A stretch of 64,000 nt of DNA from Flavobacteriales bacterium (GTDB taxonomy: Bacteria > Bacteroidota > Bacteroidia > Flavobacteriales_D > Sanyastnellaceae). Positions within the stretch are counted from its first letter, which is position 1. Each line of letters starts with the position of its first letter. The stretch spans positions 203,576 to 267,575 of the forward strand of contig JAWKNK010000002.1 in the NCBI GenBank assembly GCA_041391745.1, in the 5' to 3' direction. Of this stretch, positions 4,685-62,699 are shown piece by piece. The notes below the pieces were generated by a model. That model worked only from the letters and a program-made list of their open reading frames with translations. It was not told the DNA's origin and made no database searches. The position numbers and the translations under genes were made by a program.

Positions 4685-4837
4685 GCAGGCTATTTAGGGT
4701 TTTGGCGGGCTTTAAAAAGGCCGCCCAATAACGGTAAAGTTGCAAAAATATTGGATTTTTCACCGATAAAATGAAAATAATTGAGGATTAGATGCTTCAA
4801 GGTTTTATTTTGCATGCCAGAACCCAAGGACATTCGG

Positions 4838-5707
4838 ATGGCGAAGAAAGAGGAAGTAAAGAGAAAAAAATTGATCAAAAAGCTGAAAAGCCGCTTCAGG
4901 CTTACAGTTTTGAATGAAAAAACCTTTGAGGAAAAGTTCAGTTACTCCCTTACCCCACTGAATTTGATCATCATGTTTGGTGGTTTATTGCTCGTTTTTG
5001 GTTCTCTGATTTATTTGTTGGTGGCTTTCACCCCTCTGAAAGCCTATGTCATTCCAGATTTTACCGACTATTCCTATCGTGAAGACGCCCGTTTGGCGAG
5101 ACTTAAGGCCGACTCACTGCTGATGGTCGCCAAGCAAAACGAGCGCTATTTCGACGATTTGAAAATCATATTGAGTGGCGGAGAAATCTCGATGCCTGGT
5201 GATTCTGCGGCGCGCGAAGCCAGCCAGGTAGCGCTTGACTATCAAGTAAGCGATGTGGATGAGGCTATGCGGTTAAAATTATCGGCAGTAGATCGCTACG
5301 ATCTTGATATGGCGGAAGAAGAACAAAAGGAGAAGCGAGGAACATTGCTTTTCAGACCAGTAACGGGAAGTATTACCAATGATTATGATCCAAAAGCTGG
5401 ACATTATGGCATAGACATGATTGGGCCAAAAAACGATCCCGTGCGCGCCGTGATGGACGGGGTAGTAATGATGTCGTCCTTTACAGCGGAAGATGGCAAC
5501 GTGATTCAAATCCAGCATCCCAACAATTTGGTTTCCGTGTACAAGCACAATTCCGTGTTGCTTAAAAAGCAGGGCGATCGTGTAAAAGCTGGCGAATCAA
5601 TTGCATTTATTGGTGACAGTGGCGACCATAGCGAGGGTCCTCACCTGCATTTTGAACTTTGGATCAATGGTATTCACGTCAATCCAAAAGACTATCTCCG
5701 CGAGTAA
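4838..5707 (+). CDS. M23 family metallopeptidase (LytM domain) with an N-terminal TM anchor
   Basis: Motifs GHYGIDMIGPKNDPVRAVMDGVV and HLHFELWINGIHVNPKDYL. The start is chosen at MAKKEE (4838). The ORF is open from 4781, so the start is uncertain. Confidence 0.8.
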   Translation: MAKKEEVKRKKLIKKLKSRFRLTVLNEKTFEEKFSYSLTPLNLIIMFGGLLLVFGSLIYLLVAFTPLKAYVIPDFTDYSYREDARLARLKADSLLMVAKQNERYFDDLKIILSGGEISMPGDSAAREASQVALDYQVSDVDEAMRLKLSAVDRYDLDMAEEEQKEKRGTLLFRPVTGSITNDYDPKAGHYGIDMIGPKNDPVRAVMDGVVMMSSFTAEDGNVIQIQHPNNLVSVYKHNSVLLKKQGDRVKAGESIAFIGDSGDHSEGPHLHFELWINGIHVNPKDYLRE

Positions 5708-10957: not shown

Positions 10958-11335
10958 GGGGACACCTTGCCTCCTCATGATATAGGTTGACAGGGATCGA
11001 GGGGACAATGATTCAAGGATTCGAGGATTCAAGAAACAAGAATTCGAGGATTCAAGGATTCGAGAGGACACCTGTCCCAGGCTCGTCTTGGGAAGGATTT
11101 GGGGGGACAAGAGAGTTTGAAGGTGTGGGAGTGTGAGAGGGATCGTTTTGCAAAACGTGACCCTTCGCTTTGATTTCTTTTTCATGCTTCGCATTTAAAG
11201 AAATCGACGCTCAGGGACCGGGGCTCGAGGAGTAGAATTTGGCGGAGCAGCAAAACTTTGTTTTGCTGCTCCGCGACCATCTTTAGTGCTGCACACGGGC
11301 CCTCGAGCGTAGCGAGAGGTGTTCAGGCTTAGTGC
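10958..11335. repeat. Mosaic intergenic repeat element, copy A: GGATTCRA 8-mer tandems, a conserved two-hairpin core, GTG-rich tracts and a 14-bp perfect hairpin
   Basis: (GGATTCAA/GGATTCGA)n runs at ~11000-11065. The core GGACACCTGTCCCAGGCTCGTCTTGGGAAGGATT (11066-11099) is shared with 25639-25672. GAGTGTGGGAGTGTGAGAGGG follows. The segment ...CTCAGGGACCG... is the reverse complement of 25866-25876. A hairpin GCGGAGCAGCAAAA-cttg-TTTTGCTGCTCCGC lies at 11242-11274. Confidence 0.55.
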
Positions 11336-19911: not shown

Positions 19912-20592
19912 ATGAACACGGAAACAGAAAAAATAAAAGAGCGATACGCCAAAAGAGCGGCAAGTGAAACTGTTCTAAAACACAGTCAGTCGGCGGTGTA
20001 CAATGAGTTTTCTCGCGAAGAAAAGGAGCGAGTTTTCGAACGATTCATACGTCAATATGTAGGTGATCCAGAAAAATTGAGTGTGCTAGAAATTGGAGCA
20101 GGAGGTGGTATAAATATTTCTTTTTTTAAAAATATCGGAGTTCCAGCTCATCAAATCTTCGGAAATGAGCTTTTAGCAGAACGCGTAGAAGACTTGCAAT
20201 TGCGCCATCCCGACATTCACATTATAGCGGGTGATGCACTCCAAATAGATGAAAACACATTTGGTAAAATGGATGTCATTTTTCAAAGCACCGTTTTCAC
20301 TTCCATTTTAGATGATGGTTTTAAAAGCAAATTGGCAGAGAAAATGAAAGCACTTCTTAAGCCAAATGGAATGGTGCTTTGGTATGACTTTGTTTACAAT
20401 AATCCTTCAAATAAAGATGTAAAGGGAGTCCCTGTTGCAGAAGTCCGAACACTGTTTCCAGACTTTGATTTTCATTTTGAAAAAGTAACGCTTGCTCCAC
20501 CTATCGGCCGTCGCGTGGGCAGTATGTATCCCCTTTTCAATGCACTTCCTTTTTTAAGAACACATGTTGTAGGCGCGGGAATTAGACTTTAA
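19912..20592 (+). CDS. Class I SAM-dependent methyltransferase
   Basis: Motif I LEIGAGGGINISFF, with the downstream D/E acidic loop typical of the Rossmann methyltransferase fold. Confidence 0.7.
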   Translation: MNTETEKIKERYAKRAASETVLKHSQSAVYNEFSREEKERVFERFIRQYVGDPEKLSVLEIGAGGGINISFFKNIGVPAHQIFGNELLAERVEDLQLRHPDIHIIAGDALQIDENTFGKMDVIFQSTVFTSILDDGFKSKLAEKMKALLKPNGMVLWYDFVYNNPSNKDVKGVPVAEVRTLFPDFDFHFEKVTLAPPIGRRVGSMYPLFNALPFLRTHVVGAGIRL

Positions 20593-21050
20593 ATTTTCAA
20601 TTGTCTTGAAAATGATTCTTCCAAACTGATCAAGGTTTCAGTTCTTGCTACGCCATCCACTTTTTGAATGCGATCTGAAAGAACATCACGCAAGTGACTT
20701 GTGCCCTTGCATTGCACTTTCAAAAAAAGTGAATATGTTCCTGTAGTGTAATGGCATGAAAGCACTTCGGGGATTTTCTGTAGTTCGCGAACCACCTTGT
20801 AGTACACATCGCTGCTCGCAAGGTACACCCCAATAAAAGCGGTGATATCCCAACCCAAAGCTGCAATGTCGATTTGCAATTGTGGCTTTTTGACAATGCC
20901 AGCTTCCTCCATTTTTTTCATGCGTACGTGCACAGTACCCGCAGCCACGTGCACTTTTTTAGCCACTTCAGTATACGGAGTAAAAGCATCCTGAGAAAGA
21001 ATGTTCAAAATCTTAATATCGATGTTGTCAATTTGATAATTCATCGCCAT
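20589..21050 (-). CDS. Lrp/AsnC-family transcriptional regulator
   Basis: N-terminal HTH (DNIDIKILNILSQDAFTPYTEVAKKVHVAAGTVHVRMKKMEEAGIV) plus a C-terminal RAM domain. Length is 153 aa. Confidence 0.8.
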   Translation of the reverse strand: MAMNYQIDNIDIKILNILSQDAFTPYTEVAKKVHVAAGTVHVRMKKMEEAGIVKKPQLQIDIAALGWDITAFIGVYLASSDVYYKVVRELQKIPEVLSCHYTTGTYSLFLKVQCKGTSHLRDVLSDRIQKVDGVARTETLISLEESFSRQLKI

Positions 21051-21181
21051 AATTTTGATGTAAAATTATCATATTTTTAATAAAAACACTATTTTATTAA
21101 ATTTCATCTAAAAATAATAGTAAAAACGTGCGTTTTTCGTAATAATTCAAGTGTTTAGCATACTTTTGTCATGTCAATCAA

Positions 21182-21325
21182 TCGAAAATACTGTTGGGTG
21201 ATGAAATTGGCAGACATACCCTACTGTCGCTAGGGTGAGGAGTTCGAAATAAAGAGAGAACGAGCTAAATGATGCAGGAAATTTGGTTCGTTTAATCCTA
21301 ATCGCCTCGTGGGGGTTCGAGTCCT
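21182..21325 (+). ncRNA. tRNA-Asp(GUC)-like RNA gene. The acceptor stem, D-loop, anticodon arm and T-arm are split by a ~70-nt insertion at 21231-21300.
   Basis: 5' TGTTGGG pairs with 3' TCCAACA (6 Watson-Crick pairs plus one G-U). D-loop AATTGG. Anticodon stem-loop ACCCTA-CTGTCGC-TAGGGT with GTC at 21216-21218. T-arm GGGGG-TTCGAGT-CCTTC matches the GGTTCGAGTCC of Bacteroidota tRNA-Asp. The total length is 144 nt. No CCA is encoded. Confidence 0.45.
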
Positions 21326-21373
21326 TCTCCAACAGCAATCAAATGTGGTTTGTTTGGTTATACAGAGTTTATC

Positions 21374-21400
21374 TCAGAAAATCAGCGCTCAAACGTGAGC
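21374..21400 (+). terminator. Rho-independent terminator downstream of the tRNA-like RNA
   Basis: AGCGCTCA-aac-GTGAGCGCT followed by TTTTTTTATTT. Confidence 0.7.
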
Positions 21401-21495
21401 GCTTTTTTTATTTATACCCCCGAAATTCAAGAATTTAAGGCTGTAAAGTCTCATGTATTTCATCGTATATTTGCAGGCCTTTTTTCGGCACACAT

Positions 21496-23286
21496 ATGAA
21501 GCACATTCGTAACTTTTGTATCATCGCTCACATCGACCATGGAAAATCAACTTTGGCCGACCGTCTTTTGCAAGTCACTGGCACGGTAGACAACCGTAAG
21601 CTAGTAGCGCAAACTCTTGATGATATGGACCTTGAGAGAGAGAAGGGTATTACCATCAAAGCACACGCTATCCAGATGGAGTACACTCACAAAGGAGAAA
21701 AATACGTTCTCAACCTTATCGATACTCCAGGTCACGTTGACTTTAGCTACGAAGTTTCTCGCTCTATCGCTGCATGCGAAGGAGCATTGCTTATTGTGGA
21801 TGCAACACAAGGGATTCAAGCACAGACCATCTCCAATCTTTACTTAGCATTGGAGCATGATCTTGAAATCATCCCTGTGTTGAACAAGCTCGATCTTGAT
21901 AATGCTGAACCAGAAGTGGTGAAAGATCAAATCGTTGATTTGATCGGTTGCGATAGAGATAGCATCCTTGCTGCATCAGGAAAAACGGGTTTCGGAGTAG
22001 ACACTATTCTTGATGCTATTATTGATAGGGTCCCTTCTCCAAAAGGAGACGTTGATGGGCCACTTCAAGCAATGATCTTCGACTCGATGTTCAACTCGTT
22101 CCGAGGAATCATCGCTTACTACCGTATTCTAAACGGTACTTTGAAAAAGGGAGATAAGGTTAAATTCCTCAGCACCGACCGCACTTATGAGGCAGACGAA
22201 GTAGGTGTATTGGGATTGGACCTCAAACCAAAAAGCGAAGTTCGCGCAGGCGACGTTGGATATATCATCAGTGGTATCAAAACCGCTACGGAGGTTAAGG
22301 TCGGCGACACCATCACTACGGTGGCAAACCCTTGTACCGATGCGGTAAAAGGTTTTGAAGATGTGAAGCCAATGGTATTCGCAGGTGTTTATCCTGTTGA
22401 TACTGAAGATTACGAAGAACTACGCGCATCGATGGAAAAACTCCAATTGAACGATGCTTCTTTGGTATTTGAACCTGAAAGTTCTGCCGCACTTGGATTC
22501 GGTTTCCGCTGCGGATTCTTAGGAATGCTTCACTTGGAAATCATTCAAGAAAGATTGGAGCGCGAGTTCAATATGACTGTAATTACAACCGTTCCAAACG
22601 TTAGTTACTACGCCTACACTTCTCGCGGAGAAAAGCTTGAAATTCATAACCCAAGCGAACTCCCAGATCCTGCAAAATTAGATTACGTAGAAGAACCATA
22701 TATCAAAGCGCAAATCATTACGAAAAGTGAATACACTGGTTCGGTAATGACTTTATGTATTGAAAAAAGAGGAATGTTAATCAATCAGCACTACCTCACT
22801 GCAGACCGCGTGGAGCTTACTTTTGAGATGCCACTTGCAGAAATCGTGTTCGACTTCTATGATCGTTTGAAAACCATTTCAAGAGGTTATGCTTCTTTCG
22901 ACTATTTCCCATTGGGTTATAAAGAAAGTGCCCTTGTGAAAATGGATATTCTCCTCAATGGTGATCAAGTAGATGCCTTGTCGGCATTGATTCACCGCGA
23001 CCACGCATTCGACCTTGGTAAGAAAATTTGTTTGAAGCTAAAAGAATTGATCCCAAGACAACAATTCGAAATTGCGCTTCAAGCAGCCATTGGTGCGAAG
23101 ATCATTGCGCGTGAAACCATTAAGGCGCTCCGTAAAGACGTAACCGCGAAGTGTTACGGTGGTGACATTTCTCGTAAAAGAAAACTTCTTGAAAAACAGA
23201 AAGAAGGTAAAAAGAGAATGCGTCAAGTAGGTAGCGTAGAGGTTCCACAGGAAGCATTCCTAGCCGTATTGAAGCTTAATTCGTAA
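21496..23286 (+). CDS. lepA: Translation elongation factor 4 (LepA)
   Basis: [25 protein letters not shown]...DTPGHVDF...NKLDL. Length is 596 aa. Confidence 0.9.
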
Positions 23287-25445: not shown

Positions 25446-25890
25446 AAAAGGAGACTAGAGAGTGTGAGGGTTTGGAAGAGTTGGATTATTTGGAGAGATT
25501 GGATTTTTTTGGAATTGTTGGAAGAATTGGAAAGTATGGAAGTCTGAGAATTTTCCAATAGTAGATTCACATTGCTCAAGGATCGAGGATTCAAGGATTC
25601 GAGGATTCGAGGATTCGGATTCGAGGATTCAAGATCGAGGACACTTGTCCCGAGCTCGTCTCGGGAAGGATTGAGGATTGGAGAGACAAAAGAGTGTGAG
25701 AGTTTGGAAGATGGGAGTGTGGGAGTGTGGGAACGTAATGTGAATCCACTGACGAAAACAATTCTCGATGCTCAATTCTCGAATCGAGAATCGGGAATCG
25801 GGAATCGAGAATCGGGAATCGAAAATCCTGCAGATTAAAAGGGCGGTCCCTGAGAGGAGCGCAAGCGAAGTCGAAGGGGGAACCAAAAAA
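25446..25890. repeat. Mosaic intergenic repeat element, copy B: TTGGA-rich tract, GGATTCRA tandems, the conserved core hairpins, GAGTGTGGGAGTG tracts and GAATCGRGAATCGGG tandems
   Basis: The core GGACACTTGTCCCGAGCTCGTCTCGGGAAGGATT (25639-25672) differs from copy A by compensatory changes (CCCGA/TCGGG here, CCCAG/TTGGG in A). CGGTCCCTGAG at 25866-25876 is inverted relative to copy A. The convergent gene ends flank the element. Confidence 0.55.
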
Positions 25891-45338: not shown

Positions 45339-47588
45339 ATGGCAAAAAAGAAGAAAAAAGGCTATGGCTCTTTTAAAGAAGAGCTTCGCAAAGAAATCAT
45401 TCATGTATTTCAGAAATCCGGTCAGAAAGCACTCAACTATAAACAAGTGGCTTCTGAATTGGACATTTCTGACAGTGGGATCAGAATGCTCATTCACGAC
45501 ATTCTGGAAGCGGAGGTGATGGATGGTACATTGAAGGAAGTAGAGAGAGGAAAGTATATTCTCACAAAACAGTCGGTATTTAGTGTTCAAGGGACGATTG
45601 AAATCAATCGCTTTGAAAAAGGATATGTCACAGTAGAAGGTGAAGCACGCGACATCGAAATTCCAAAAGGAAAAACTGGTTTTGCCCTCAATGGAGATTT
45701 GGTTGAAATTACATTTAATCCTCATGCTAGAAGAAAGCAAGGTGAAGTGATTCGCGTGGTTCAAAGATCGAAGCACCAATTTGTTGGAGTATTAAAGCAA
45801 GAGTCCGTTGGAATGTTTATGATTCCTAGCGACAAGAAAGTCCACGTTCATTTTTTCATCTCAAAAGAACAAATGAATGGAGGAAAAGATGGCGATAAAG
45901 TTTTGGTAAAAATTCTCGATTGGGACAGACCAGGATCTAGCCCTTTCGGTAGAGTGGAAGAAGTATTTGGAAGACCTGGAGATCACAAAGCTGAGATGCA
46001 TTCTATCATTGCTGAGTTTGAACTTCCTTATCATTTTCCAAAACATCTTGAAGAAATTGCTAATCGAATTGATAGTGGTATTACTCCAAAAGAAATTTCG
46101 AGAAGACGAGACTTTAGAGAAATTACAACTTTCACCATAGACCCGTTTGATGCAAAGGATTTTGATGATGCGTTGAGCATTCAAAAATTGGATAATGGAA
46201 ATTACGAGGTAGGTGTTCACATTGCCGATGTGAGTTTTTACCTCACTCCAAATAGTCCACTTGAACCAGAGGCTTTTGATCGTGCAACATCGGTTTACCT
46301 TGTGGATCGCACCATTCCAATGCTTCCGGAGCGGCTGTCCAACTTCTTGTGCTCGTTGAGACCGCATGAAGAAAAGCTTTGTTTCAGTGCCGTTTTTGAA
46401 TTGAATGAAGAAGCAGAAGTGGTTTCTGAATGGTACGGAAGAACAGTAATCTTCAGTGATCGCCGATTCACATACGAAGAAGCACAAGCAATTATTGAAG
46501 GTGAAGAAGGCGATTTCAAAGAGGAAATCCTGACGCTCGATCGACTTGCCAAAAAAATGCGTGCGGATCGCTTCGACAACGGAGCCGTTGATTTCAGCAG
46601 CGAAGAAGTGAAATTTAATTTGGACGACAATGGTGTGCCAACTGGGGTGTACATCAAAAAGATGAAAGATTCCAATCAATTGATTGAAGAGTTTATGTTG
46701 TTGGCCAACAAAAAAGTGGCTGCCTTTATTGGCGACACGAGTTTGCCATTCAATCATACATCAAAGCCAAAAACTTTTGTTTATCGTGTGCACGATGAAC
46801 CTCAGGAAGACAAAATTGAACAACTCAGAAAGTTTGTAAAACAATTGGGTTATAAATTGGGTAAGCCTTCTGGCAAAGGCAATGGCGCTGTAATCAAAGA
46901 TTTACTCAAAGCAGTAGAGGGTCAACCAGAAGAAAGTGTGATTCAAACGATGGCGATTCGTTCGATGGCCAAAGCTGAATACAGCACACACAATGTGGGA
47001 CACTTTGGATTGGCATTCGATTTTTACACCCACTTTACCTCACCTATTCGAAGATATCCGGATGTGATGGTGCATCGATTGTTGCAGCATTATCTCGACA
47101 AAGGAAAGCCTGTTGATGAAGGAGAGTATGAAATGAAGTGTCGCCATAGCAGTGCAATGGAAAAGCGCGCAGCTGAGGCCGAGCGCGCTTCTATAAAGTA
47201 CAAGCAAGTAGAATATATGTTAGCTCGCAAGGGTCAAGTGTTTGAAGGTGTTATTTCTGGTCTTGCCGATTGGGGAATTTATGTGGAAGAAAAGGAAAGC
47301 AAGTGCGAAGGACTGGTGTCTCTGAATACATTGGAAAACGACTATTACAGCTTCGATCCTGATCGTTATGTGGTGTACGGCGCACGCACCAAACAGGAGT
47401 ATCACATGGGCGATGAAATCATGTTTGTGATGGTGGATGGAGATATTCAACAGCGCACATTGGATTATGAAATTGCTGACAACCGCAAAACATTCAAGTC
47501 ACAGCGCCCAGAAAACAAACGCAGCAGTGGTCCTAAAAAGACATTTTCTCAGAAAGCACGAGGCAATTCGAAGAAAAAGCGTCGATGA
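45339..47588 (+). CDS. rnr: Ribonuclease R
   Basis: MAKKKKKGYGSF... winged-helix N-terminus, cold-shock domain, RNB catalytic domain (...DFDDALS...), S1 domain and a K/R-rich tail. Length is 749 aa. Confidence 0.85.
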   Translation: MAKKKKKGYGSFKEELRKEIIHVFQKSGQKALNYKQVASELDISDSGIRMLIHDILEAEVMDGTLKEVERGKYILTKQSVFSVQGTIEINRFEKGYVTVEGEARDIEIPKGKTGFALNGDLVEITFNPHARRKQGEVIRVVQRSKHQFVGVLKQESVGMFMIPSDKKVHVHFFISKEQMNGGKDGDKVLVKILDWDRPGSSPFGRVEEVFGRPGDHKAEMHSIIAEFELPYHFPKHLEEIANRIDSGITPKEISRRRDFREITTFTIDPFDAKDFDDALSIQKLDNGNYEVGVHIADVSFYLTPNSPLEPEAFDRATSVYLVDRTIPMLPERLSNFLCSLRPHEEKLCFSAVFELNEEAEVVSEWYGRTVIFSDRRFTYEEAQAIIEGEEGDFKEEILTLDRLAKKMRADRFDNGAVDFSSEEVKFNLDDNGVPTGVYIKKMKDSNQLIEEFMLLANKKVAAFIGDTSLPFNHTSKPKTFVYRVHDEPQEDKIEQLRKFVKQLGYKLGKPSGKGNGAVIKDLLKAVEGQPEESVIQTMAIRSMAKAEYSTHNVGHFGLAFDFYTHFTSPIRRYPDVMVHRLLQHYLDKGKPVDEGEYEMKCRHSSAMEKRAAEAERASIKYKQVEYMLARKGQVFEGVISGLADWGIYVEEKESKCEGLVSLNTLENDYYSFDPDRYVVYGARTKQEYHMGDEIMFVMVDGDIQQRTLDYEIADNRKTFKSQRPENKRSSGPKKTFSQKARGNSKKKRR

Positions 47589-47639: not shown

Positions 47640-47713
47640 GCGCCTATAGCTCAGTCGGTTAGAGCAACAGACTCATAATCTGTGGGTCCCTGGTTCGAGC
47701 CCAGGTGGGCGCA
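47640..47713 (+). tRNA. tRNA with CAU anticodon: elongator tRNA-Met or tRNA-Ile2 (lysidine)
   Basis: GCGCCTA-TA-GCTC-AGTCGGTTA-GAGC-A-ACAGA-CTCATAA-TCTGT-GGGTC-CCTGG-TTCGAGC-CCAGG-TGGGCGC-A. G1-C72 rules out an initiator. No CCA is encoded. Confidence 0.85.
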
Positions 47714-47718
47714 CTTGA

Positions 47719-58387: not shown

Positions 58388-59674
58388 ATGAAAAACATCC
58401 TGAGATCATTATTTTTAATTCAAGTGTATTCGTTTGGGATAATGGCCACATTATCTTGTTCTAAAAACGAGCCTGAAATCGCTGACAACTCCTCCACCGC
58501 AACTTCGGAATTTGCATTTTACCAGTATCTTCAAGTTCCTGGAAGTGACCCAGACAATGGATTGGTTGCAAAACAAGTTGACAATACCACAGGTGATGAA
58601 ATTTTCTACTATGGGTCTTTCGATGAAGATGGACTTCCACAATCACCCAAGTCTATTGTTGTCAAAAAATTCTCTACCGATACTATGATGAATGTTTTCG
58701 TAGATGAATACATGCGACCAACGATGGTTTATTTTTCACACACAAATGGAGAAAAATACTCGACATTATGGACATATGAATGGAGTTCAGACAATACATT
58801 TTTATTCAGAAAATTCACTTACGATTGGGCACCGGAAACAGACAATCTCGACTATGAGTCATTTGTGACATACACCGATGGCCAGTATTATTTCGAAGAT
58901 AATTTTGTGAGATCATTGCATACTGAACTCGATGTTCCAGCAATGTTTGAAGAAAATATGAACTACAGAGGTGGAACTGCCTTTTGGACTAGTGTTGCTA
59001 GCAATGTAGTTACAGGCATCGGAGTAGTTGCAGCGGTTGGCGTAGGCATTTACGGTGCGGTTACCTTCGGAACTGTGTATGGTGTGGTTGGTGCCCTTAC
59101 CATCCTTACTGGTGTATTGATGGGAACGGCTAATGCTAGCGAACCACCTATCAACAACAACAATAATAACACGCCACCCAATCCGAACAATACTCCAAAT
59201 CCGAATCCGGTAAGTAATGTAAATAATCCTACCAACCTGACTACCACAACGGGAACCACAGGTACTACGGGCACAACAGGTACTACAGGATCTGACGGAA
59301 CTACCACAGGAACCACGGGAACAACGGGAACAACAGGAACGACGAGTACTTCTGGAACCGACGGAACAACAAGTACAACGAGTACTACTGGAACTGACGG
59401 AACTACAGGAACTACAAGCACAACAGGTACAACAGGTACAACGAGCACAACAGGTTCTGATGGAACAACTACTGGTACTACGGGTACTACGGGAACTACT
59501 GGCACTACAAGTACAACGAGCACCTCAGGAACAGATGGTACTACGGGCACCACTAGTACAAATAGTACAACAGTGACAACTAACGACACCATTATCGGAA
59601 TGACGATAGATCAACAAAAACTTAACAATCAATTGCGTCGTGAGTTGTTCAATAATCGCCGAGGTAAGAACTAA
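58388..59674 (+). CDS. Lipoprotein with an N-terminal globular domain, a glycine-zipper TM segment and a long Thr/Gly-rich repeat region
   Basis: Lipobox ATLSCSK. GIGVVAAVGVGIYGAVTFGTVYGVVGALTILTGVLMG. About 120 aa of (TTG)n/TST repeats. Confidence 0.55.
   Translation: MKNILRSLFLIQVYSFGIMATLSCSKNEPEIADNSSTATSEFAFYQYLQVPGSDPDNGLVAKQVDNTTGDEIFYYGSFDEDGLPQSPKSIVVKKFSTDTMMNVFVDEYMRPTMVYFSHTNGEKYSTLWTYEWSSDNTFLFRKFTYDWAPETDNLDYESFVTYTDGQYYFEDNFVRSLHTELDVPAMFEENMNYRGGTAFWTSVASNVVTGIGVVAAVGVGIYGAVTFGTVYGVVGALTILTGVLMGTANASEPPINNNNNNTPPNPNNTPNPNPVSNVNNPTNLTTTTGTTGTTGTTGTTGSDGTTTGTTGTTGTTGTTSTSGTDGTTSTTSTTGTDGTTGTTSTTGTTGTTSTTGSDGTTTGTTGTTGTTGTTSTTSTSGTDGTTGTTSTNSTTVTTNDTIIGMTIDQQKLNNQLRRELFNNRRGKN
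59221..59580 (+). repeat. Tandem 9-nt (ACN-ACN-GGN) repeats encoding the Thr/Gly-rich tract
   Basis: Imperfect repeats actacgggt/actacagga/acaacgagc. They lie inside the coding sequence with no spacer architecture. Confidence 0.6.
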
Positions 59675-62620: not shown

Positions 62621-62626
62621 ATATAG

Positions 62627-62699
62627 TACCCCCACCGCGACTCGAACACGGATTGGCTGTTTAGGAAACGGCTGTTCTATCCTGTTGAACTATGGGGGC
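62627..62699 (-). tRNA. tRNA-Arg (anticodon CCU)
   Basis: - strand: GCCCCCA-TA-GTTC-AACAGGATA-GAAC-A-GCCGT-TTCCTAA-ACAGC-CAAT-CCGTG-TTCGAGT-CGCGG-TGGGGGT-A. The 1-72 pair is G-U. There is one mismatch in the anticodon stem. No CCA is encoded. Confidence 0.7.

Follow-up and report, generated by a model that had tools for sequence, protein, structure and literature searches.

A tRNA-shaped gene with a 72-nucleotide variable arm, adjacent to an AsnC/Lrp-family regulator gene in uncultured Flavobacteriales and present also in phage contigs

A stretch of 64,000 nucleotides (nt) from a Flavobacteriales bacterium (GenBank assembly GCA_041391745.1, contig JAWKNK010000002.1, positions 203,576 to 267,575), called here the window, carries on its forward (+) strand, at 21161-21409, a gene that is shaped like a transfer RNA (tRNA) and has a variable arm of 72 nt. 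Comparison with its homologues indicates that this gene belongs to a real, selected and previously unannotated family of tRNA-derived small RNAs. We think that a class II (tRNA-Leu-like) tRNA gave rise to its product, a structured small RNA that is a non-decoding tRNA mimic and would be matured by the tRNA-processing enzymes, and we give this reading a probability of about 0.6. A first-pass annotation had described a tRNA-Asp(GUC)-like gene interrupted by an insertion of about 70 nt, and had offered three options for it: a small tRNA intron, a tRNA-derived structured small RNA, or a tRNA pseudogene disrupted by a miniature element. Among them, the second is the one that fits the evidence.

Direct reading of positions 20900-21700, combined with folding, gives a complete cloverleaf at 21191-21336 (+), with ends at C21191/U21192 and A21334/G21335 (Table 1). 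All the tRNA elements listed in the first-pass annotation are present in the right order, and its TAnnTTTG-like -7 motif, given at about 21160, is confirmed within a nucleotide. Its internal positions (cloverleaf at 21182-21325) were about 9-10 nt too low; the insertion was rightly placed at the variable-loop position and nearly right in size, with a span different from the 21231-21300 assigned to it, and the terminator exists as well, shifted with respect to 21374-21400. The full tRNA core is found: an acceptor stem of 7-8 base pairs (bp), U8, A14, G18 and G19, the 26:44 pair, U48 and the T loop UUCGAGU. Pairing of the acceptor can be extended by C21191 (C-1), which stands opposite G21335, and the tRNA-like RNA, of about 145 nt, has an acceptor/T-stem configuration of 7(+1)/5. 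The base after G73 is an invariant C and the CCA end is not encoded, just as it is not encoded in the tRNA-Met and tRNA-Arg genes of the window.

The variable arm is attached in class II style, with the 26:44 pair, the arm starting from position 45 and two linker nucleotides before the T stem. Its base helix GAGG/CCUC (4 bp) is separated by a 4-nt bulge from a 3-bp helix CGA/UCG; beyond an internal loop, in which AAAGA and CCUAA are conserved, comes a distal hairpin of 13-14 bp with the conserved apical loop UGCAGGA. Downstream, a GC-rich terminator hairpin of 8 bp is followed by a T run. Thus, 21161-21409 has the features of a stand-alone gene with its own promoter box and terminator, in which transcription would start about 6-9 nt 3' of the -7 box; this Bacteroidota type of box is outside the coverage of the sigma-70 promoter scan of the window. 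The gene is not bound to a downstream gene, as its orientation with respect to lepA changes between lineages.

Standard tools pass over this gene. ARAGORN made no call at the element in the native sequence, with or without the intron option, and its only calls in the window were tRNA-Met and tRNA-Arg. For transfer-messenger RNA (tmRNA), both the dedicated ARAGORN search and the Rfam tmRNA models were negative at the element. Rfam 15 gave zero matches there at the gathering scores or at E<=10, RF00005 included, and neither a group I/II intron nor a ribozyme was matched at E<=10. In silico removal of the 72 nt, or their shortening to a 4-bp stem, leads to a default ARAGORN call of tRNA-Asp(gtc). 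The ARAGORN and Rfam checks proposed in the first-pass annotation are therefore blank for the native sequence, and ARAGORN returns the tRNA-Asp only after this removal. The label Asp itself is not supported, since it rests solely on the anticodon loop, and the D arm and the class II geometry are tRNA-Leu-like. Literature searches found no published description of the RNA.

The z-score for folding of the single sequence is only -2.2 and, because of this, the case for structure rests on comparative data and not on folding energy. RNAalifold with nine sequences yielded the cloverleaf, a hairpin in the trailer and the terminator, with compensatory change in 16 pairs. In an alignment of ten sequences (A4), 98.6% of the cells of the named structure are paired, versus 46-55% in controls in which the 3' partners were slid by 1-3 columns, and both sides have changed in 17 of the 43 pairs, versus 1-3 in the slid controls; the observed pairing values were reached by none of 500 shuffles. 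When 16 sequences were aligned to the model, 97.7% of cells were paired and 31 pairs had double changes. Compensatory changes occur in every helix that varies: the D stem passes from A-U to G-C to U-A among homologues, the variable arm has such changes in A4 in helix 4 (1/4 pairs), helix 5 (2/3) and helix 6 (10/14), and the terminator stem has them in 5 of its 8 pairs. The invariant columns include U8, A13-A15, G18 and G19, A21, U48 and the T loop, and the nucleotides of the canonical tertiary core (U8, A14, G18 and G19, T54-C56, A58) are invariant in alignments A4 and A5. From this comparative evidence we conclude that the RNA is under selection for structure, and that the 72-nt arm is a selected domain.

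Homologues are present in seven chromosomal lineages of uncultured Flavobacteriales (the window; L081/82/83/136/137; L085/86/87/115; L088/89; L099; L167/168; L169/170/171); two phage-like contigs and the integration junction of one prophage have them as well. The LepA of the window is identical to a protein (MEZ4798677.1) of an NCBI genome labelled Flavobacteriales bacterium. The closer relatives that carry the element were reached through LepA and AsnC protein clusters, and L081-L099 stem from freshwater samples. The known distribution, explored with limited scans, is narrow: one clade of uncultured Flavobacteriales and some phages. In 80 lepA loci of other Bacteroidota, nhmmer, blastn and the family model detected no element near lepA, and the nearest species representatives, metagenome-assembled genomes (MAGs) of Cryomorphaceae and Crocinitomicaceae with LepA identity of at most 81%, have none beside lepA. 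In a divergent locus, L164 (2660-2880, -), whose AsnC is 79% identical, a TAnnTTTG box, the acceptor-like ends UUUUUGGA and UCCAACGA and a terminator are found with no T arm; this locus would be a version of the RNA that has either decayed or been remodelled.

The immediate neighbours in the window are genes for a methyltransferase, AsnC and LepA, and asnC is the sole one that is conserved. The divergent arrangement of asnC and the RNA gene is kept in 7/7 chromosomal lineages, with about 110-125 nt separating the asnC start codon from the -7 box. Several lineages have the two genes inverted with respect to lepA and the rest of the neighbourhood, and therefore the conserved unit is asnC with the RNA, not the RNA with lepA. 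For instance, the RNA gene is oriented away from lepA in L085-87, L088 and L099, and in L085-87 it converges on a methyltransferase gene, whose 3' end it faces. A cis-regulatory leader of lepA was also considered and was rejected, as the link to asnC persists through the changes of orientation and neighbours. The -7 box TA..TTTG is invariant at one alignment position in the 11 chromosomal homologues compared (11/11). Between it and the acceptor stem lies a stretch without sequence conservation, from about 11 to about 95 nt long across homologues; such variability in length and sequence is the pattern expected of a leader that is removed.

The two full-length phage copies were found in IMG/VR contigs. 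The copy in L172 (1997-2159, -; 79.8 bits) has an enlarged D loop and belongs to a 67-kilobase (kb) contig with a thymidylate synthase, PHROG families without assigned function and no bacterial housekeeping neighbours. The copy in L316 (4753-4906, +; 86.2 bits), an 8-kb contig, has the same arm architecture and a GUC-N-C loop. Moreover, the IMG/VR provirus L173 has the 3' part of a copy at its edge (L173:1-57), and directly 3' of this part (L173:238-3204) there are a tyrosine integrase (phrog_1, 1e-38) and phage-type repressors. Integration into a tRNA-type gene is a classic prophage arrangement, for which both tRNA and tmRNA genes are used. The integrase being directly beside the 3' part of the copy, the RNA gene serves as a prophage attachment site. 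In two other viral scans, a degenerate 5' pattern had 120 matches due to chance, and the acceptor pattern with a gap of normal tRNA length brought up unrelated phage tRNAs of various identities.

A second kind of phage tRNA-like RNA, not called by ARAGORN, was observed in L295 (3485-3634, +) and L313 (1703-1811, -). Its D arm GGCGGAAUGGUAGACGC and T arm CAGGUUCGAAUCCUG are canonical, and about 45-90 nt replace the anticodon arm; L295 has the same acceptor sequence as the family with a different centre, and L313 also carries 11 ordinary tRNA genes. Separately, 141 nt of L296 (4693-4833; the same sequence in L294) match the Rfam tRNA model with 40.9 bits and have 83 nt at the anticodon-arm position; they lie in a GC-rich phage contig that contains repeated CCAGCCGTGTTGGTG units and further tRNA-like pieces.

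The anticodon loop reads CUGUCGC in the window and the L081 group, CAGUCUC in L085, CUGUCCC in L167, CAGUCCC in phage copy L172 and UCGUCUC in phage copy L316. It is CUAAAAA (anticodon AAA) in L099 and a 6-nt loop, AAACGA, in L169-171, and the whole anticodon arm is absent from L088. Decoding tRNAs keep U33 and a purine at position 37. Among the homologues U, A and C all occur at position 33, and G, U and C at position 37, and the acceptor stem remains constant while the 'anticodon' changes. The RNA is probably no decoding tRNA, as its anticodon loop is not kept as a decoding loop. In the GUC lineages (five, two of them phage), positions 34, 35, 36 and 38 are constant and positions 32, 33 and 37 vary. 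G34, U35, C36, C38 and G73 are all present in the window, the L081 and L085 groups, L167, L172 and L316. The first four are absent from L099, L169-171, L088 and L295, which keep G73 with the exception of L295 (C73). The first pair is U1-A72, not the bacterial G1-C72, in 14 of 16 sequences.

The body of the molecule is a class II, tRNA-Leu-like scaffold in which an existing variable arm was expanded to 72 nt. The best match of the family model (R1) to a genuine tRNA is a phage tRNA-Leu(taa), with 62.5 bits, compared to 34.9 for tRNA-Tyr and 25.2 for tRNA-Asp. The D arm UGGUGAAAYGGCAGACAC is one base different from the D arm of that tRNA-Leu, its best match among 106 tRNAs of the fetched loci; tRNA-Asp scores 4 of about 19. 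As in the class II tRNAs (tRNA-Leu, tRNA-Ser and bacterial tRNA-Tyr), a helical variable arm directly follows the 26:44 pair, with a D arm of tRNA-Leu type, A15/U48, G18 and G19 and a canonical T loop. In ordinary class II tRNAs the variable arm is a short hairpin, far below 72 nt, whereas here it has three helices and conserved loops. Other differences are that the anticodon loop is not kept for decoding and that tRNA finders miss the RNA. In addition, the discriminator is G and not the A73 of tRNA-Leu, which is required for leucine identity in Escherichia coli according to section 12 of PMC9976931.

In the window and its closest lineages, G73 is followed downstream by CAAUCAAA, by the invariant GU-rich block UGUGGUUUGUUUGGUUAUA (21344-21362) and by UUAUCUC, ahead of the terminator. 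This 19-mer is 100% identical in five lineages (the window, the L081 and L085 groups, L088 and L099) and is the most conserved stretch in them, at LepA identities of 88-93% to the window's and with flanking DNA that cannot be aligned. It occurs once in the window versus 0.02 times expected. L167/168, L169-171 and the phage copies L172 and L316 lack the block and keep the cloverleaf and the arm. Conversely, L088 keeps the block with a tRNA part reduced to the acceptor and the T arm, together with a 14-nt linker UAAUAAAAUGGCAA that resembles a D loop, and L085-87 have an 18-nt hairpin inserted 3' of the block. The tRNA core, the giant arm and the trailer thus behave as separable modules, each gained or lost independently of the others. 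A metagenome scan with an 18-mer of the trailer gave 63 matches, of which only L115, L136 and L137 are real and the others are due to chance; the only match of the 19-mer in a viral scan was a phage coding gene. A small open reading frame (ORF) in the trailer, (M)WFVWLY..., was rejected as main explanation: its start codon varies (AUG, CUG, UUG), the third positions of the block are all invariant across diverged lineages, the sequence 3' of the block diverges in content and length, and the terminator hairpin of the window lies inside the frame.

In our opinion, these data are best accommodated by the following sequence of events. A primary transcript of about 235 nt would be matured like a tRNA, with RNase P removing the variable 5' leader and an endonuclease such as RNase Z cutting after G73, after which CCA may be added. 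Because CCA is not encoded, as in the real tRNAs of the window, the expected pathway is cleavage by an endonuclease behind the discriminator and subsequent addition of CCA; the trailer would therefore be freed by the cut. The product would be a non-decoding tRNA mimic that presents an invariant acceptor and elbow to a tRNA-binding protein and, in most lineages, aspartate-identity nucleotides as well. In the subclade of the window, the released 3' trailer with its invariant GU-rich 19-mer probably functions as an additional RNA in its own right. The amino-acid-sensing regulator of AsnC/Lrp type encoded next to the gene probably controls expression by way of the divergent promoter region that the two genes share.

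Several points weigh against this proposal. We infer the transcription start, the processing sites and the CCA addition from the sequence, and only the arrangement of the genes points to regulation by AsnC. The lineages in which the family is known are few and all come from metagenome assemblies, and L164, where the T arm is missing, makes the structure dispensable in some lineage. The alignment of 16 sequences was fitted to the model, which favours the structure of the model. The loop CUGUCGC of the window has U33 and a purine (G) at position 37, so decoding by this particular copy is possible. Finally, a duplex scan of the 64-kb window for targets of the trailer block found nothing above background except its own antisense strand.

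The nucleotides of the anticodon loop are central for two other explanations. One takes the RNA for an aminoacylatable, non-decoding carrier, which would be charged by aspartyl-tRNA synthetase (AspRS), have its Asp converted to Asn by the tRNA-dependent amidotransferase GatCAB and have its gene controlled by the AsnC-family regulator. G34, U35, C36 and C38, constant in five lineages (two phage) while 33 and 37 vary, together with the invariant G73, coincide exactly with what section 29 of PMC9976931 lists as the 'five strong determinants' of aspartate identity. Section 48 of the same source gives U1-A72, the prevailing first pair of the family, as the determinant for amidation of Asp-tRNA(Asn), and G1-C72 as an antideterminant. 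The neighbouring gene of the AsnC/Lrp family agrees with such a role, although members of this family sense many different amino acids. In contrast, G1-C72 is described in that source as strictly conserved and important in bacterial tRNA-Asp, the 72-nt arm may clash with AspRS, and L099, L169-171, L088 and L295 keep the remainder of the RNA without the Asp anticodon, which argues against an aspartylated carrier as universal function. We consider the carrier quite unlikely; an undescribed class of carrier tRNA mimic common to Flavobacteriales and phages, which would be aspartylated, possibly amidated to Asn and used outside translation as amino-acid sensor, donor or decoy under an AsnC-type regulator, is unlikely. 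It would be very doubtful as well that the RNA is a genuine decoding tRNA with an extra-long arm that reads Asp codons, either charged by AspRS or charged by seryl-tRNA synthetase with deliberate mistranslation as a result. The loops of the window, the L081 group and L167 do have U33 and anticodon GUC, the tRNA core is complete and ARAGORN calls a tRNA-Asp once the arm is deleted; besides, section 26 of PMC9976931 names a long variable arm and G73 as serine determinants and describes serylation as anticodon-independent. However, lineages that are otherwise conserved show A33 or C33, a pyrimidine at 37, AAA, a 6-nt loop or no anticodon arm at all, next to an acceptor stem that does not change with them, and the native sequence goes unrecognised by ARAGORN and the Rfam tRNA model alike.

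The two remaining explanations concern the modules rather than the loop. It is conceivable, though unlikely, that the tRNA-like module is mainly a handle for processing and stability and that the function resides in the 3' trailer, which RNase Z would release as a GU-rich small RNA that acts by base pairing. The strict conservation of the 19-mer speaks for it, and so does L088, where the block is intact and the tRNA-like part is cut down to the elements required by RNase P, RNase Z and the CCA-adding enzyme (acceptor, D loop and T arm). Yet L167/168, L169-171, L172 and L316 have the full cloverleaf and arm without the block, the conserved loops and covarying helices of the giant arm would be superfluous for a mere handle, and no target of the block was found in the window. 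The last explanation gathers the other two options of the first-pass annotation: a tRNA gene that has been split by a small intron or a miniature mobile element, or one that is decaying as a pseudogene. Its halves form a normal cloverleaf without the 72 nt, but the insert stands at the class II arm position, away from the anticodon loop, its junctions follow the class II pattern, and it covaries and has conserved loops. All full-length homologues keep the arm, an insert-less allele with an intact anticodon arm was not found, and the absence of intron and ribozyme matches in Rfam speaks against an intron. The search for further copies of the insert proposed with that annotation found none in the window or in the fetched loci of relatives outside the orthologous position, and the promoter, terminator and helices are conserved and under purifying selection. 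Interruption or decay is thus highly improbable.

Table 1. Features of the tRNA-shaped gene and of the adjacent regulator gene (window positions)
Feature	Position	Strand	Basis or remark
AsnC/Lrp-family regulator gene, 153 amino acids, divergent	20589-21050	-	Pfam HTH_AsnC-type, HTH_24, AsnC_trans_reg
-7 promoter box TACTTTTG (TAnnTTTG, Bacteroidota-type)	21161-21168	+	Read directly; invariant in homologues
5' leader, about 15 nt, removal by RNase P expected	21175-21190	+	Variable leader in homologues
Cloverleaf 5' part, acceptor to U44	21191-21236	+	RNAalifold and pair counts
Acceptor 5' strand UGUUGGG (U1-G7)	21192-21198	+	Pairs with UCCAACA
U8, G9	21199-21200	+	
D arm, stem ATG/CAT, loop AAATTGGCAGA containing GG	21201-21217	+	tRNA-Leu-like
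A26	21218	+	Pairs with U44
Anticodon-like hairpin CCCTA-CTGTCGC-TAGGG (GTC at 21226-21228)	21219-21235	+	
U44	21236	+	
Giant variable arm, 72 nt	21237-21308	+	Covariation; same architecture in phage copies L172 and L316
G47, U48, T arm, acceptor 3' strand, G73 and next base C	21309-21336	+	Columns (near-)invariant in all homologues
T arm GGGGG-TTCGAGT-CCTTC	21311-21327	+	
Acceptor 3' strand TCCAACA	21328-21334	+	
Discriminator G73	21335	+	
3' trailer with GU-rich block TGTGGTTTGTTTGGTTATA (21344-21362) and TTATCTC (21369-21375)	21337-21383	+	
Intrinsic terminator AGCGCTCA-AACG-TGAGCGCT and T run	Stem-loop 21384-21403, T run to 21409	+	Terminator scan

A few observations were made elsewhere. 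The tRNA-Met(CAT) gene of the window (47640-47714) lies within 55 nt downstream of a gene of the RNase R/II family (RNB domain, 45339-47585), and the tRNA-Arg(CCT) gene, without encoded CCA, is at 62626-62699. Tandem repeats of 7-8 nt, GGATTCAA/GGATTCGA (complement GAATCGRG), are found in at least three regions outside the larger predicted ORFs (10983-11069, 25569-25616 and 25765-25819). A 9-nt periodic ACNGGNACN-like repeat at 59239-59580, in the ORF 58388-59671, would encode a Thr/Gly-rich stretch of low complexity. With regard to lepA, a Crocinitomicaceae MAG has a direct duplication of about 140 nt upstream of this gene (L004:4400-4540 and 4770-4900) that includes the hairpin-forming GGGAATGAC...GTCATTCCC, and about 190 residues are duplicated within a 786-residue member of the LepA cluster (P0001), most likely through an error of assembly.

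Among the known RNAs with a tRNA-like part, the tRNA-like domain of tmRNA is also non-decoding and combines an acceptor stem, a T arm and a D loop with extra RNA between them; tmRNA genes are also prophage attachment sites, as the RNA gene is in L173, and have copies in phage contigs. The differences are clear, however: pair 3:70 is here U3-A70 instead of the alanine determinant G3:U70, the RNA of about 145 nt has no tag reading frame, resume codon or pseudoknots, and it keeps a D stem and an anticodon-like hairpin. The bacterial Y-RNA-like YrlA is another bacterial non-coding RNA with a tRNA-mimicking module (PMC4201824), one that resembles the tRNA elbow. YrlA ends in a Ro-binding stem and not in an acceptor stem, and its genes adjoin rsr. 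The neighbours of our gene are of other kinds, and a Pfam search of the 30 larger ORFs of the window found no rsr-like family, nor an aminoacyl-tRNA synthetase, GatCAB or RNase Z gene nearby; also unlike YrlA, the RNA has no Rfam match at E<=10.

A tRNA-like fold followed by a conserved RNA is likewise found in MALAT1 and its small cytoplasmic RNA (mascRNA), in the tRNA-microRNA units of gammaherpesviruses and in plant tRNA-small nucleolar RNA units, all of them eukaryotic or viral systems. The layout described here would be consistent with cuts by RNase P and RNase Z that define two products. In contrast to such processing handles, the tRNA-like part is here elaborately conserved and persists without the trailer block in some lineages. 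Allo-tRNAs, finally, are also unusual tRNA-shaped genes from metagenomes and phages. The configurations given for them by Mukai et al. (2017, PMC5389517) are 8/4 or 9/3 for the acceptor and T stems, whereas the RNA reported here has the 7(+1)/5 configuration, the 72-nt arm and an anticodon loop that is not conserved.

The discovery of tmRNA, of YrlA and of viral tRNA-like structures revealed in each case one way for cells or viruses to reuse the tRNA machinery. The present family adds a case in which it is the variable arm of a class II tRNA, and not the anticodon arm, that has been expanded into a conserved domain of 72 nt. It also adds a modular build, the conserved pairing with the gene of an amino-acid-sensing regulator, copies in phage contigs and use as a prophage integration site, and it shows that standard tRNA and Rfam annotation overlooks such genes. 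The retention of aspartate-identity nucleotides while the decoding positions drift provides a biochemical hypothesis that is directly testable.

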